64,000 bases of DNA from a virus (Duplodnaviria; Heunggongvirae; Uroviricota; Caudoviricetes), in IMG/VR virus record IMGVR_UViG_3300031555_002904. One strand, written 5' to 3'. A program made the position numbers and the translations under genes. Under the pieces are notes generated by a model that worked only from the letters and a program-made list of their open reading frames with translations, had not been told where the DNA came from and ran no database searches. Shown piece by piece: positions 45,726 through 54,063 of this stretch. Position 1 is the stretch's first letter; each line of letters begins with the position of its first letter.

Positions 45726-46301
45726 ATGAAAGTTCTTATCGTCGTTGATATGCAGAAAGACTTCGTGGATGGTTCCCTCGGCACCCCGGAGGCGCAGGCA
45801 ATTGTGCCCCTGGTTGCAGAAACTATCAAGCAGATGGCTGATCCCAATACTGTCTGTATTTTCACTAAGGATACCCACGAACATTTCTATCTAAACACCC
45901 TGGAGGGCAAGAACCTGCCCGTAGAGCACTGCATCGCCGGAACTGCCGGCCATTCCATCGTTGACGAGGTTTTTGAAGCCTACTGTTGCAAGGATTTCAA
46001 AGACCCCTGGGAGGTTTATCCTCTGGCTACTACCAATCCCCTGCGTATCGAGAAGCCCAGCTTCGGCTCTGTTGAGTTGCAGAACATTCTGGCTACTATG
46101 AATGACAATGAACCGATCGAAGAGATTACGCTGATGGGTCTCTGCACCGGCATTTGCGTTCTTTCCAACGCTATTCTGTGTAAGGCAACTCTGCCCGAAG
46201 TTCCTGTCAATATTGTGGCTGACTGCTGTGCCTGTGTCACCCCTGCAAGTCATAAGACTGCTCTGGAGGCGATGAAGCTGTGTCAGATCAATATCATCTG
46301 A
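45726..46301 (+). CDS. pncA: isochorismatase-family hydrolase (nicotinamidase PncA-like)
   Basis: N-terminus VIVVDMQKDFV and a catalytic Cys in LMGLCTGICV. Confidence 0.65.
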   Translation: MKVLIVVDMQKDFVDGSLGTPEAQAIVPLVAETIKQMADPNTVCIFTKDTHEHFYLNTLEGKNLPVEHCIAGTAGHSIVDEVFEAYCCKDFKDPWEVYPLATTNPLRIEKPSFGSVELQNILATMNDNEPIEEITLMGLCTGICVLSNAILCKATLPEVPVNIVADCCACVTPASHKTALEAMKLCQINII

Positions 46302-46529
46302 TTTCTGACTCTCAACTTCAAGCAGAAAAATTCAGTTATGTAATGACTGATGAATAGATGTTTGAATTACGAGACGAAAATTTACCCTATTGCCCCTCTG
46401 CGTTTATTCGCTGTAATGGCAATTTCAAAAAATATAAAGCATATATCAAATTACGAGCATTTCGAGTATTTGGATGGGCCGGTAGTGCTGATTTAGAACT
46501 TGGAATGGGACCATCATGGAGGAAAAGTT

Positions 46530-47378
46530 ATGATTACAGTAAACGGAATCAAAGTGACCCAGGGTAACTTCCCTGACAATACGCTGCTGATGAAATTCGA
46601 TCCTGATTCCATTCCTGACGACGGGAATGATATCGAAATTTGGTGGCTCTATGAAAATGATGCAGAACTCTTTACTCTAGTCTGCCTCAAGAGACACCTG
46701 GATCAGCACTTCTTCGCAGACAGTTTCCGCCTGTTTATGCCCTATATTCCCCACGCTCGCCAGGACCGCACCAAGACCCAGGAGGATGTATTCACTCTGA
46801 AATACTTTTGCGAAATCATCAATTCGCTGAATTTTCCCGTGGTATGGGTGCGCGACGCTCATAGTAACGTGAGCCTGGCCCTGCTGAATAATGTCAGAGA
46901 AATGCCTATCACCAATTATGTTCTGGACGCGATTTTCAGCGCCCAGGCTGATGTACTCTTCTTCCCCGATGAAGGCGCTATGAAGAGATATTCTGGTGAA
47001 TTCGACATTCCCTACGCTTTTGGCATGAAGAAGCGTGACTGGTCGACCGGTAAGATCCAGGGTCTGGATATTATCAATGCTGAGGCTGTTGCCGGTAAGA
47101 ATGTGCTTATCGTCGACGATATCTGCTCCAAGGGCGGCACTTTCTTCTACTCTGCTAAGGCGTTGAAGGCTGCCGGCGCCAAGAGTGTGAGTCTGTATGT
47201 CACACACCTGGAAAAGACTGTGATTCTGGGTGAGATGGCCAGCACCGATGGTCTGGTCGATCACATTTACACAACTAAATCCATCTTCCCCGAAGAGCTG
47301 TTTAAGGACGGCTATGATCCCTATTGGAGAGAATGGATTACTATTTTTGATGAAGAAAGGAGTAATTCCGATGAATAA
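46530..47378 (+). CDS. ribose-phosphate pyrophosphokinase-like (Prs/Adps-like)
   Basis: HARQDRK motif and PRPP-binding loop NVLIVDDICSKGGT. RBS ggaggaaaag then ATG 46530. Confidence 0.6.
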   Translation: MITVNGIKVTQGNFPDNTLLMKFDPDSIPDDGNDIEIWWLYENDAELFTLVCLKRHLDQHFFADSFRLFMPYIPHARQDRTKTQEDVFTLKYFCEIINSLNFPVVWVRDAHSNVSLALLNNVREMPITNYVLDAIFSAQADVLFFPDEGAMKRYSGEFDIPYAFGMKKRDWSTGKIQGLDIINAEAVAGKNVLIVDDICSKGGTFFYSAKALKAAGAKSVSLYVTHLEKTVILGEMASTDGLVDHIYTTKSIFPEELFKDGYDPYWREWITIFDEERSNSDE

Positions 47379-47889
47379 GTATGAAACCATCAAGGCTGAT
47401 ATGACTGCGGCCTTGAAGGCAGGCGACAAGCTGAGACGACTGACTCTCGCTGATATGGTCGCCACAATCGACAAAGCTGCCACCTCTGGCAAAAAGAGAG
47501 TGGAAATCACTGACGCCTTCGTTGATGAAGTGCTATTGAGGTATAAGAAGACCGTCCAGGAGATGGTCGATACCTGTCCCGACGGAGCGGCCGATCCCAA
47601 GAGAGATGCAGAATTAAAGGCTCGTAAGGCTGAATATCTGATGAAGCTCTCCATCGCAACGGAATACGCTCCTCAAGTTATTGACGATAAGGATGAAATC
47701 GTTAAGATGATTATGTACTGGGGCGTCTGCAATGCAGTTTCTATCTGCTCTGGTAATAAGGGCATTATTATGAAAAATGTGATGCCATTTTTGAAGTCCA
47801 AGAGCTGTGATATGAAGGTCGCCCAAGAGGCACTCAAGGAAGCTATGGCTACGGGCGATGCCTGCATCCAGGCACAGCTGGGGTCCTAA
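47371..47889 (+). CDS. YqeY/GatB-domain-like protein
   Basis: MNKYETIKADMTAALKAGDKLRRLTLADMVATI resembles the YqeY N-terminus. ATGA overlap with the upstream gene. Confidence 0.45.
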   Translation: MNKYETIKADMTAALKAGDKLRRLTLADMVATIDKAATSGKKRVEITDAFVDEVLLRYKKTVQEMVDTCPDGAADPKRDAELKARKAEYLMKLSIATEYAPQVIDDKDEIVKMIMYWGVCNAVSICSGNKGIIMKNVMPFLKSKSCDMKVAQEALKEAMATGDACIQAQLGS

Positions 47890-47890
47890 T

Positions 47891-48709
47891 ATGGAGTTCT
47901 ACGATAGAATTGATAAATTGAATACAATGATTGCGGATGCCCGCCACATCGTATTCTTCACCGGGGCCGGTATTTCTACCGGTTCCGGCATTCCGGATTT
48001 TCGCAGTACCAATGGATTATATAATCAGCAGGACTTCCTCTATGATCCCGAATACTATCTGAGTAATGCCTGTCTCGAAGAGGATCCGGAGGCGTTTTTC
48101 AAGTATATCCAAAAAAATATGGATTTCCGCAAGGCTACACCGAATATCGCCCATGAAAAAATCTCTTTGTTACAGCTAACAAGGACTGTGTCTGTCATTA
48201 CACAAAATATTGACGGACTACACGAAAACGCACATTCCTACGCGGTTTCGGCGATTCATGGAACGATGAACCGAGCCTATTGTGTTGATTGCTTAGCCGA
48301 GTATGACGGCAACTATATTTTTGATGACGATGGCATTCCACTATGCACCGAATGTCAAGGTATTGTGCGCCCCGATATTGTCCTATATGGCGAGGGATTA
48401 CATTCAACTGAGTGGGATATTGCACTTCAATGGACGAGAAATGCCGACCTTTTCATCGTAGTTGGCAGCTCTCTGAGTGTAGCGCCCGCAAATATGCTTC
48501 CTCATTATTTCGGTCGTGATGATAAATTAGTCATCATCAATCGAGATCCTACTCCCCTGGACAGTCATGCGGAACTGGTATTCCACGATGATATTCAAGA
48601 AGTGTTTGAAAATATCCGCATTCCTCACCAAGTACAAAAATCTATCCACGAGGTAATCAATGATGAAAAGATTTATCGCGATGTTATTTGCCTTGCTCAT
48701 GGTTCTTAA
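47891..48709 (+). CDS. Sir2-family NAD-dependent deacylase
   Basis: GAGISTGSGIPDFR and a Zn tetrad CVDC...CTEC. Confidence 0.8.
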   Translation: MEFYDRIDKLNTMIADARHIVFFTGAGISTGSGIPDFRSTNGLYNQQDFLYDPEYYLSNACLEEDPEAFFKYIQKNMDFRKATPNIAHEKISLLQLTRTVSVITQNIDGLHENAHSYAVSAIHGTMNRAYCVDCLAEYDGNYIFDDDGIPLCTECQGIVRPDIVLYGEGLHSTEWDIALQWTRNADLFIVVGSSLSVAPANMLPHYFGRDDKLVIINRDPTPLDSHAELVFHDDIQEVFENIRIPHQVQKSIHEVINDEKIYRDVICLAHGS

Positions 48710-53142: not shown

Positions 53143-53404
53143 GTGGCACATTTTTAATGAATCTAATGGACCACTTTGTTGGGATGGTAAGGCTCTAGAA
53201 TTTGATACAAAAGAGTCTGCTGAGCGATTTCTTCACTCTTATGTTGATACAATGTATGATAGTTATGAGGAATATTGTAAAGCTTTCGGCGTCGCAATCA
53301 AAGAATGTATCCTATACTATGATGGTGGATATCTCAATGCCACAAATAAAATTGTAATATACGGAGAAGATGACTGGGAAGGTCATTTAGAAAATGTAGA
53401 ATAA
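53123..53404 (+). CDS. hypothetical protein
   Basis: 93 aa; ATG overlaps the upstream 3' end. Confidence 0.4.
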   Translation: MAIQSLKWHIFNESNGPLCWDGKALEFDTKESAERFLHSYVDTMYDSYEEYCKAFGVAIKECILYYDGGYLNATNKIVIYGEDDWEGHLENVE

Positions 53405-53438
53405 AAAATACCCCCTCGCAACTCGAGGGGGTATTATT
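53403..53438 (+). terminator. intrinsic terminator
   Basis: Hairpin taccccctcgcaactcgagggggta followed by ttattgattttt. Confidence 0.7.
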
Positions 53439-53465
53439 GATTTTTATAAAAAAATATGATATAAT
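53437..53465 (+). promoter_or_regulatory. repeat promoter copy, class B leader
   Basis: ttgatttttataaaaaaatatgatataat. Confidence 0.7.
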
Positions 53466-53499
53466 ATATATATAAAGGATAAGAAAGGAATTGATATAA

Positions 53500-54063
53500 A
53501 TGACAGGTGTAATCTTATTTAGAGCACAGCCGTTTCACAAAGGACATTTGAATATGGTCCAAAAGGCATTTGAAGATAGTCGAGCAAATGGCGCAGAACT
53601 CTATATCTTCGTCGGCTCTGCTGATAAGAAAGGTACTGTGCGAAATCCAATCCCTATTGATTTCCGTCTGATGCTGATCGAGGGTGCGATTCACGAAGTC
53701 TTCAGTTCCGATGAAATGAAGCATATTCATATCTTTCCCCTGGACGATCTAAGTGATGAGACCAATAACACTCACGATTGGGGTCGTTATCTGTATATGA
53801 AGATGTTGAGTAAGACACGCGACACCGATATGACAATCTATTACAGTGACAATCCGCAGATTATGCTGAGCTGGTTCAGTGCTGACGAGCGCTGGTGCTT
53901 GCGCTTCAAATTCCTCGATCGCTATCAGAATATCAGTGCAACTGCGGTTCGTGCCTTATTGGAGAATCCGAGCGTGCCCGATGCGGCGCTCGAGGCAGTC
54001 CTTCCGCCCTTTGTTATGATTTTCAAAAATGAGATTTTGAATTATATCAAGGAGGCAAAGTGA
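53500..54063 (+). CDS. nicotinamide/nicotinate mononucleotide adenylyltransferase (NadM/NadR-type)
   Basis: Cytidylyltransferase motif LFRAQPFHKGH (H-x-G-H); 187 aa. Confidence 0.65.
   Translation: MTGVILFRAQPFHKGHLNMVQKAFEDSRANGAELYIFVGSADKKGTVRNPIPIDFRLMLIEGAIHEVFSSDEMKHIHIFPLDDLSDETNNTHDWGRYLYMKMLSKTRDTDMTIYYSDNPQIMLSWFSADERWCLRFKFLDRYQNISATAVRALLENPSVPDAALEAVLPPFVMIFKNEILNYIKEAK

Follow-up and report, generated by a model that had tools for sequence, protein, structure and literature searches.

Depletion of nicotinamide adenine dinucleotide (NAD+) is among the commonest anti-phage strategies of bacteria, and the known phage answers to it, the NAD+ reconstitution pathways NARP1, NARP1-AP, NARP2 and NARP3, have all been described between 2024 and 2026. 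NARP1 is composed of the two enzymes Adps and Namat (Osterman et al. 2024; structures in PMC12774641 and PMC13586617). Adps of SPbetaL1 is the enzyme that was shown to make ADP-ribose pyrophosphate (ADPR-PP; Osterman et al. 2024) and makes no phosphoribosyl pyrophosphate (PRPP; Osterman et al., bioRxiv 10.1101/2024.02.11.579819). In NARP1-AP an associated phosphatase is added, and Adpp of Vibrio phage Gary has been characterised as an ADP-ribose-1''-phosphate (ADPR-1''-P) phosphatase (bioRxiv 10.64898/2026.01.28.702374). NARP2 is formed by NAMPT and NMNAT (NadV and NatV in Vibrio phage KVP40). The present analysis deals with a cluster of genes for NAD+ salvage and ADP-ribose processing, which is located at positions 45726–54063 of 64,000 nucleotides of DNA from the Caudoviricetes record IMGVR_UViG_3300031555_002904; this whole stretch is termed the window. 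On balance, the evidence leans slightly towards an NAD+ reconstitution module of the NARP1 kind, which is apparently rewired through nicotinic acid ('deamidated NARP1').

In common with NARP1, the phage-borne cluster contains genes of the Adps and Namat families on the same strand, conserves the catalytic core as well as Arg40, Phe392 and Thr-Arg-Asp, and is equipped with sigma-70-like promoter motifs. In contrast to NARP1, Asp215 and Ala242 of Namat are exchanged for Ala and Ser, with six further alignment columns separating both types, and accessory genes lie between the Adps-like and the Namat-like gene. Moreover, the nicotinamidase PncA accompanies this type almost always and the NAD+ synthetase NadE usually, whereas both are missing from all 54 classical clusters in the sample, and the predicted product is deamido-NAD (NaAD) instead of NAD+. 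As in NARP1-AP, a macro-domain gene homologous to Adpp adjoins the Namat-like gene, its product being 28–35% identical to proteins of Table S1 (bioRxiv 10.64898/2026.01.28.702374); unlike there, the macro protein is only a putative ADPR-1''-P phosphatase which is also DarG-like, and deamidating and amidating enzymes are added. With NARP2 the genome shares a NAMPT-fold enzyme together with a gene resembling NMN adenylyltransferases. However, the NAMPT-fold enzyme is, judged by its sequence, Namat-like and Adps-associated and probably not a PRPP-preferring NadV, and the NMNAT-like protein is a 187-residue single domain of archaeal type, which lacks a Nudix match and is missing from most related modules. 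The parts of NARP3, a PnuC-like transporter and a bifunctional NadR-like kinase/adenylyltransferase, were not found in the Pfam annotation of the genes called within 10 kb on each side.

Family membership of the core enzymes

The original prediction had described the region as a cluster for NAD+ reconstitution of the NARP kind and for ADP-ribose processing, and was to be given up if its Prs-like and NAMPT-like proteins belonged to unrelated phosphoribosyltransferase families. Profile, sequence and fold comparisons place both proteins in the Adps and Namat families, respectively, so that this reading of the cluster is supported. The Prs-like protein is assigned to the Adps family by an identity of 37% over its full length (E 3e-43) to the validated Adps of SPbetaL1, and against phrog_619 it scores 244 bits, with 248 bits for SPbetaL1 Adps. 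A canonical PRPS, in contrast, was rejected, since the protein remains below every canonical PRPS cut-off (TIGR01251: 78 vs 113 bits) and its best PRPS structure reaches 61 bits. The PP loop, DDICSKGGTF, is near to the Adps loops of classical NARP1 loci (SPbetaL1: DDLSSFGGTF; for the context of this loop see PMC13586617) and is devoid of the Thr that precedes GGT in two archaeal PRPS structures (DDIISTGGT). A KKR motif, as a candidate for the catalytic Lys (Lys185 in ICP1), is found at the expected spacing. In relatives, the Adps-like and Namat-like genes are 0.8–2.5 kb apart.

The NAMPT-like protein is assigned to the Namat family both by sequence and by predicted fold. Its best sequence matches in the PDB are the Namat structures 9W5X/9W5W (341 bits), followed by NadV of H. 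ducreyi (HdNadV; 255 bits) and human NAMPT (about 115 bits), and in a fold comparison of its AlphaFold model (pLDDT 84.5) Namat ranks first with a TM of 0.90. A true NAMPT as in NARP2 was rejected on these relative similarities together with the association with Adps, and a nicotinate phosphoribosyltransferase of the PncB type was rejected because structures of that family remained unmatched in the PDB search. The NCBIfam name 'nicotinate phosphoribosyltransferase' of PRK09198 is presumably a historical label for the NadV family. The view that parts of both the NARP1 and the NARP2 route are present is thus not supported, as the sole NAMPT-family protein of the cluster is Namat-like and Adps-associated and no NARP2-type NAMPT is found beside it.

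Directly downstream of the Namat-like gene, and adjoining it, lies the gene of the macro-domain protein. Its product is 35% identical (4e-30) to the macro protein encoded in the NARP1 operon carried by Vibrio phage RYC (Table S1 of the aRES preprint) and shares 28% identity (2e-9) with Adpp of Vibrio phage Gary, which has been characterised; it is also near to the macro domain of DarG (NF048014, 57 bits; PDB 5M3I). By its matches to the RYC and Gary proteins and to phrog_335 the macro protein is classified as an Adpp homolog, and the predicted core of the cluster is NARP1 with its associated phosphatase (NARP1-AP). A nicotinamidase function is credible for the PncA-like protein: of six PDB matches, five are nicotinamidases or pyrazinamidases (best 1ILW/1IM5, 2.6e-11), and the catalytic Asp and Cys as well as the metal-binding Asp, His and His align with PncA of P. 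horikoshii. Three points go beyond the original prediction, namely the match of the macro protein to Adpp of NARP1-AP, the remodelled pocket of the Namat-like enzyme, and the finding that PncA and NadE are not add-ons.

Pocket type of the Namat-like enzyme and its linkage with PncA and NadE

The residues that hold nicotinamide in SPbetaL1 Namat are Phe189, Arg192, Asp215, Ala242 and Arg306 together with Asp13' and Tyr15' of the partner subunit, with Asp215 forming a hydrogen bond to nicotinamide (PMC12774641). The corresponding residue of human NAMPT, Asp219, sets the specificity for nicotinamide, and substrate preference is switched in the D219S variant (PMC7096376; PMC4919578). At the positions equivalent to Asp215 and Ala242 the window protein carries Ala211 and Ser238, and the pocket motifs read NTATVPA and VSFEHS, compared with GTDTIPA and PATEHS in Namat. 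The combination Ala/Ser at 215/242 is shared by the window protein and 120 of its 120 best database homologs. In a sub-clade from Lachnospiraceae and Thomasclavelia, position 215 is occupied by Ser (Ser/Ser variant), which is the same change as in human D219S. The window protein retains Phe189, Arg192, Arg306 and Asp308, which are invariant in its 120 closest homologs, as well as the catalytic His.

When 20 clusters of this non-Asp type were compared with 33 clusters carrying Asp or Glu at position 215, eight columns alone (20, 184, 187, 215, 239, 240, 242 and 304) split both types perfectly. In the non-Asp type, an aromatic residue at column 184 is replaced mostly by Lys or Arg (17/20 clusters) and His at column 187 by Gly (19/20 clusters); positions 187, 215 and 242 correspond to His191, Asp219 and Ala244 of human NAMPT. 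As far as NAMPT inhibitor structures can be taken as a guide, several of the discriminating positions presumably line the tunnel beside the carboxamide of nicotinamide. His191 of human NAMPT is located in the tunnel (PMC7464552).

These substitutions have to be weighed against classical NARP1-AP, in which the Namat-like enzyme would use nicotinamide and ADPR-PP to form NAD+ directly, and PncA, NadE and the NMNAT-like protein would be separate auxiliary metabolic genes feeding the Preiss-Handler pathway of the host. Such an arrangement, which is considered rather unlikely, would agree with the presence of Adps, Namat-like and Adpp-like proteins and with the conservation of the Phe, Arg, Asp and His residues listed above; Ser242 could stand in for Asp215 as hydrogen-bond partner of the amide, and the D215A variant of SPbetaL1 Namat retains residual activity (PMC12774641). 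However, if Namat used nicotinamide, PncA would draw on the same substrate in competition with it, and the discriminating columns are not scattered but comprise the contacts 215 and 242, their neighbours 239 and 240, and the His191 equivalent 187.

The genomic neighbourhood of both pocket types was compared in 79 viral contigs and 80 contigs of bacterial genomes or metagenome-assembled genomes (MAGs) with flanks of 10 kb each, by scoring residues 215 and 242 and locating neighbouring genes by tblastn. Relatives in viral contigs were found by an alignment-based scan, a scan with a single protein having found none. Counts refer to clusters at 90% identity with at least 3 kb of flank, 97 in total. 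Among the 43 clusters of the non-Asp type (Ala/Ser or Ser/Ser), a PncA-like gene is found in 41, NadE in 37 and both in 35, whereas a PncA-like gene, NadE and the combination of both are found in 0 of the 54 clusters with Asp/Ala or Glu/Ala, 53 of which contain an Adps-like gene. The association is reflected in a Fisher test (p = 5e-19, without phylogenetic correction) and is retained after clustering at 70% (15/19 non-Asp vs 0/38 Asp/Glu clusters). The linkage in the viral sample was replicated in the independent bacterial sample and in the GenBank records Phass-1 (OQ749652) and MT835544, the public phage records with the variant; NadE of Phass-1 is annotated there as hypothetical. It is kept across deep divergence (about 35–45% identity), in phages as well as on bacterial chromosomes. 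Gene order, in turn, varies by lineage (PncA-Adps-Namat-NadE; Adps-PncA-Namat-NadE in Clostridium; Adps ... Namat-macro-NadE-PncA in MT835544), which argues that the linkage is functional and not merely inherited. The non-Asp pocket is almost always accompanied by PncA and usually by NadE, the Asp type by neither of them; this pattern points to another kind of chemistry, which is deamidated, and the same counts, obtained for phages and chromosomes with varied gene orders, speak against classical NARP1-AP.

In Clostridium chromosomes (among the genome loci L096–L150), Adps-like, PncA, Namat (Ala/Ser) and NadE genes form an operon, with a gene for the regulator NrtR either before or after it; in Clostridium sartagoforme (L110, 8643–13126) the four-gene operon is followed by NrtR. 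NrtR is found beside many bacterial loci of both pocket types, and its effector is ADP-ribose (PMC2330246). The NrtR-linked operons of Clostridium suggest that the phage module is derived from a bacterial NAD-recycling operon. They resemble the NrtR-regulated prs-nadV operons (PMC2330246) in that bacterial copies of the four-gene module also lie beside NrtR. Among the regulons in the accessible portion of that report, which include prs-nadV and pncA-pncB-nadD-nadE, a prs-pncA-nadV-like-nadE operon is not present.

Besides the pocket, the Namat-like protein is distinguished by an insertion of 85 residues (319–404, encoded by 50589–50846), which is predicted with high confidence to form a helix and long β-hairpins and is absent from SPbetaL1 Namat. 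Asp-type enzymes of Bacillus phages have it too, namely that of Kirov (L003) and, to judge from query coverage, those of Tsamsa and Skywalker. The insertion was therefore dismissed as the cause of the variant, since it is found in Asp-type enzymes such as that of Kirov and many non-Asp enzymes are devoid of it; it is independent of the pocket change.

Further arrangements were observed among the relatives. In Flavobacterium, Pedobacter and other Bacteroidota (L140–L170) a third pocket is found, with Glu184 and Asp187 and with Asp215 and Ala242 kept, and about ten of the loci have a NADAR gene placed between those for the Adps-like and Namat-like proteins. A distant enzyme of the Ala/Ser type is encoded on the IMG/VR contig 3300010167_000014 (L064, about 10013–11626) with PncA and NadE nearby; it seemingly lacks the catalytic His (ISCNPS vs ISTEHS), possibly due to an alignment artefact, and an Adps-like gene was not detected. 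In Phass-1 (L002, 11567–12909), a phrog_1238 protein ('phosphoheptose isomerase') is encoded between the Namat-like gene and NadE.

Predicted route through nicotinic acid

In the proposed route, NAD+-degrading defences would release nicotinamide and either ADP-ribose or ADPR-1''-P, the latter being converted to ADP-ribose, where needed, by the Adpp-like macro protein. The Adps-like enzyme would form ADPR-PP from ADP-ribose and ATP, and the PncA-like enzyme would cleave nicotinamide to nicotinic acid and ammonia. The Namat-like enzyme, the pocket of which has lost the specificity Asp and acquired Ser and a nearby Lys, would then join nicotinic acid and ADPR-PP directly to NaAD. Finally, NadE would convert NaAD to NAD+, for which the ammonia set free by PncA could be reused in principle. 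It is tentatively proposed that the non-Asp Namat-like protein is a nicotinate:ADPR-PP transferase which yields NaAD in one step and which, with PncA, Adps and NadE, would constitute a fourth NAD+ reconstitution pathway, common to phages of gut Clostridia and to NrtR-linked operons of Clostridia. The protein families, the pocket substitutions, their near-exclusive genomic linkage and the arrangement of promoters and terminators are observed directly; the switch of substrate, NaAD as the product and the role in counter-defence are inferred.

The occurrence of modules that contain NadE but no NadD-type enzyme fits NaAD, and not nicotinic acid mononucleotide (NaMN), as the product of the Namat-like enzyme. 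A further indication comes from the adenine selectivity clamp, which is defined by the SCH motif GSX-phi-X-phi-X-phi-TRD and by Arg, Lys or Tyr in SCL. The clamp residues Arg40, Phe392 and Thr-Arg-Asp are kept in the window protein. Its SCH reads GSFSFM-[12 aa]-YNPYTRD, so that the first aromatic residue and TRD are retained but the motif is interrupted; the Arg of SCL is present. Phass-1 (GAYTYQYVTRD, with Ala for the Ser of the motif) and L064 (GSFTYQYVTRD) match the clamp motif of Namat, and the Namat-like proteins of the Clostridium operons display its N-terminal half. Retention of the clamp residues in these proteins favours NaAD over NaMN.

The clamp bears in particular on a PRPP-dependent salvage, in which the Prs-like protein would make PRPP, the Namat-like enzyme would form NaMN in place of PncB, the NMNAT-like protein or NadD of the host would convert NaMN to NaAD, and NadE would act last. 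Namat retains activity with PRPP in vitro (PMC12774641), an NMNAT-like adenylyltransferase is encoded in the window, and the clamp motif of the window's clade is interrupted by an insertion. Nevertheless, this scheme is judged quite unlikely: the Prs-like protein groups with Adps and not with PRPS, and SPbetaL1 Adps makes no PRPP, as mentioned above; the NMNAT-like gene is found in 2/43 non-Asp clusters, compared with 37/43 for NadE; and Arg40, an aromatic residue at 392 and Thr-Arg-Asp are kept, in line with the motifs of Phass-1, L064 and the Clostridium proteins. It may be added in favour of the scheme that, to our knowledge, NadD is present in every host. With the Preiss-Handler salvage I pathway (PncA-PncB-NadD-NadE) the cluster shares the first and last enzymes, PncA and NadE. 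In contrast to that pathway, enzymes of the NAMPT lineage and the Adps family are found mid-pathway, PncB is unmatched in the PDB search, and NadD is not found among the genes called around the cluster.

Several points weigh against a route through nicotinic acid. The proteins of the non-Asp clade are known from their sequences alone. The D215A variant of SPbetaL1 Namat is about 8-fold less active, but its activity is not abolished (PMC12774641), and the exchange of Asp for Ala together with Ala for Ser could be a compensatory swap that still permits binding of nicotinamide. In a neighbour-joining tree the Asp-type sequences are united in a single clade, so that the association amounts in essence to a single deep split, and independence is overstated by the Fisher p-value. 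A few non-Asp loci are devoid of NadE within 10 kb. In the window's clade, the helix motif of the clamp is broken by an insertion of variable length (about 5–30 residues), which makes binding of ADPR-PP less certain. Finally, the nicotinic-acid route requires a second ATP, and its benefit to the phage is not obvious.

A description of a nicotinic-acid variant of NARP1 was not found in the searchable full-text literature, a scope to which older neighbourhood predictions for NADAR and NAD pathways do not belong. Neither the preprint on NARP1 nor the paper on the structure of Namat mentions nicotinamidase, PncA, NadE, NaAD or nicotinic acid.

Transcription units, accessory genes and phage context

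All nine domain assignments of the original prediction were reproduced in profile searches with Pfam, NCBIfam and PHROGs, and its coordinates proved accurate (Table 1). The nine genes are not strictly consecutive, however, as four small open reading frames (ORFs) without a family match are interspersed, giving thirteen ORFs on the + strand. That the cluster is more elaborate than the two-gene modules was borne out. Most of these genes are again found side by side in related contigs, with protein identities of 55–70% (L008, L013, L016, L091), and the grouping is therefore not due to chance. The same set of proteins is also encoded on a public metagenomic contig of 181 kb. At the DNA level, no close phage was found when the 8.3-kb region was compared by megablast with 50,697 GenBank phage records.

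Table 1. Positions of genes and regulatory elements of the cluster within the window
Feature	Position	Strand	Unit	Match or remark
Hairpin 45637–45660 and promoter motif copy 45662–45697	45637–45697	+		start of unit 1
PncA-like nicotinamidase (candidate), 191 aa	45726–46301	+	1	PF00857, 79.5 bits
Adps-like PRPS-fold enzyme, 282 aa	46530–47378	+	1	phrog_619, 2e-72
YqeY/GatB_Yqey-domain protein, 172 aa	47371–47889	+	1	PF09424, 31.9 bits
Sir2/CobB-type NAD-dependent deacylase, 272 aa	47891–48709	+	1	NF001752, 274 bits (cut-off 221); PF02146, 165 bits
ORF134, 134 aa, lipoprotein-like N-terminus MMKRFIAMLFALLMVLNLCAC	48660–49064	+	1	last of unit 1; no PHROG or Pfam match
Hairpin 49066–49099 and promoter motif copy 49100–49135	49066–49135	+		end of unit 1, start of unit 2
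ORF82, 82 aa	49157–49405	+	2	gene call in public contig; no family match
ORF70, 70 aa	49405–49617	+	2	gene call in public contig; no family match
Namat-like transferase, 581 aa	49635–51380	+	2	phrog_448, 4e-137
Macro-domain protein, Adpp homolog by sequence, 158 aa	51380–51856	+	2	phrog_335 'phosphatase', 1.7e-40
NH3-dependent NAD+ synthetase NadE, 271 aa	51853–52668	+	2	PF02540, 163.6 bits; TIGR00552, 159 bits, above cut-off
NADAR/YbiA-family protein, 149 aa	52693–53142	+	2	PF08719, 99.3 bits; TIGR02464, 89.9 bits, above cut-off
ORF93, 93 aa	53123–53404	+	2	last of unit 2; no family match
Strong hairpin 53407–53435 (12 pairs) and promoter motif copy 53437–53472	53407–53472	+		start of unit 3
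Archaeal/NadM-type NMN or NaMN adenylyltransferase-like protein, 187 aa	53500–54063	+	3	PF01467, 32 bits, above cut-off

Promoters and terminators are arranged such that the cluster falls into three transcription units, the third of which comprises the NMNAT-like gene and genes downstream of it. Each unit is headed by a copy of a 36-nucleotide motif, TTGATTTTTATAAAAAAATATGnTATAATATATATA, which is sigma-70-like with an extended -10 element and directly follows a GC-rich hairpin. The motif is present in 15 copies in the window (5317 to 54972), all of them on the + strand; the number expected by chance is 0. From its sequence it looks like the phage's early promoter for the host polymerase, and the three copies suggest that the cluster may be expressed from host-type promoters early in infection.

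The remaining genes with named domains are lineage-specific accessories. Among the non-Asp clusters, Sir2 is found in 3/43, NADAR in 10/43, YqeY in 5/43 and NMNAT in 2/43, and both Sir2 and NMNAT are missing from a relative with a 70%-identical Namat-like protein. A core role of the NMNAT-like gene is accordingly not supported. The best PDB matches of its product are archaeal NMNATs (3e-7), with which the motif PFHKGH aligns; it remains below the equivalog cut-offs for NMNAT, and matches to the bifunctional NMNAT/Nudix models end before the Nudix part. The Sir2 protein displays the motifs GAGIS..GIPDFR and QNIDGLH as well as two Cys pairs (CxxC...CxxC). In Bacillus phage Kirov, too, a YqeY annotation is found close to the NARP1 genes. 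The NADAR protein appears to carry the YbiA-type Glu in its last strand (by the rule of PMC11125620) and is a putative accessory enzyme for handling ADP-ribose.

In a further alternative, the cluster would not serve counter-defence. It could instead be a general toolkit for NAD+ economy and ADP-ribosylation that supports NAD consumers of a large phage (Sir2, and perhaps an NAD-dependent ligase or RNA repair), or the macro and NADAR proteins could reverse the ADP-ribosylation of DNA by toxins of the DarT type. A complete CobB-type Sir2 is present, the macro protein resembles the macro domain of DarG (see above), NADARs remove ADP-ribosylation from guanine (PMC11125620), and bacterial versions of the module lie beside NrtR as housekeeping operons for NAD recycling. 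Yet most of the related modules lack Sir2 and NADAR, as the counts above show, and no DarT-type toxin, which would be needed for an antitoxin pairing with DarG or NADAR, is found among the genes called around the cluster. Furthermore, modules of Adps and Namat are experimentally established as counter-defence, and Adpp is a homolog of the macro protein. A toolkit of this kind is thus judged very unlikely; being an alternative for the biological role only, it would leave room for the chemistry proposed for the route through nicotinic acid.

MAGs assigned to Acutalibacteraceae, Lachnospiraceae, Oscillospiraceae and other Clostridia contain the closest relatives, as does a human faecal sample, and an endolysin-like gene nearby encodes Amidase_2 and SH3_3 domains. 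The host is likely to be found among gut Clostridia. Between 4953 and 23979 the window contains 41 arrayed tRNA genes, and at 20681–20852 two of the tRNAs, which are next to each other, have a CTA anticodon (TAG suppressors). TAG is the stop codon of only 5 out of 58 long + strand ORFs of the window, and the public call of a Metallophos_2 gene (55951–56664) continues across two TAG codons into a tail rich in Cys and His. Recoding of TAG by the phage is possible; it is known from Phass-1 (code 15 clade), another carrier of the non-Asp module. The regions flanking the cluster (about 38900–45411 and 54221–58514) look like an RNA-repair and anti-defence region. Found there are a Thg1-like gene and genes for a sigma-70-like factor, RNase T, an RNA ligase (43156–44574, phrog_968), a SpoT-like HD_4 hydrolase (44752–45411), two metallophosphoesterases flanking an AAA_33 kinase (54221–56547), a Band_7 protein and a PhoH/PIN protein.

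For annotation, the two types can be told apart by NTAT with xSxEHS (non-Asp) and GTDT with PATEHS (Asp type). If the route through nicotinic acid is true, it would represent a new enzyme specificity for the NAMPT/Namat fold and would explain why a nicotinamidase and an NAD synthetase stand beside Adps and Namat in some phages and Clostridia. It would also hint at a selective pressure from nicotinamide being unavailable, due either to PncA of the host or to a defence that removes nicotinamide, and the arms race over NAD+ would extend to the phages of gut Clostridia.

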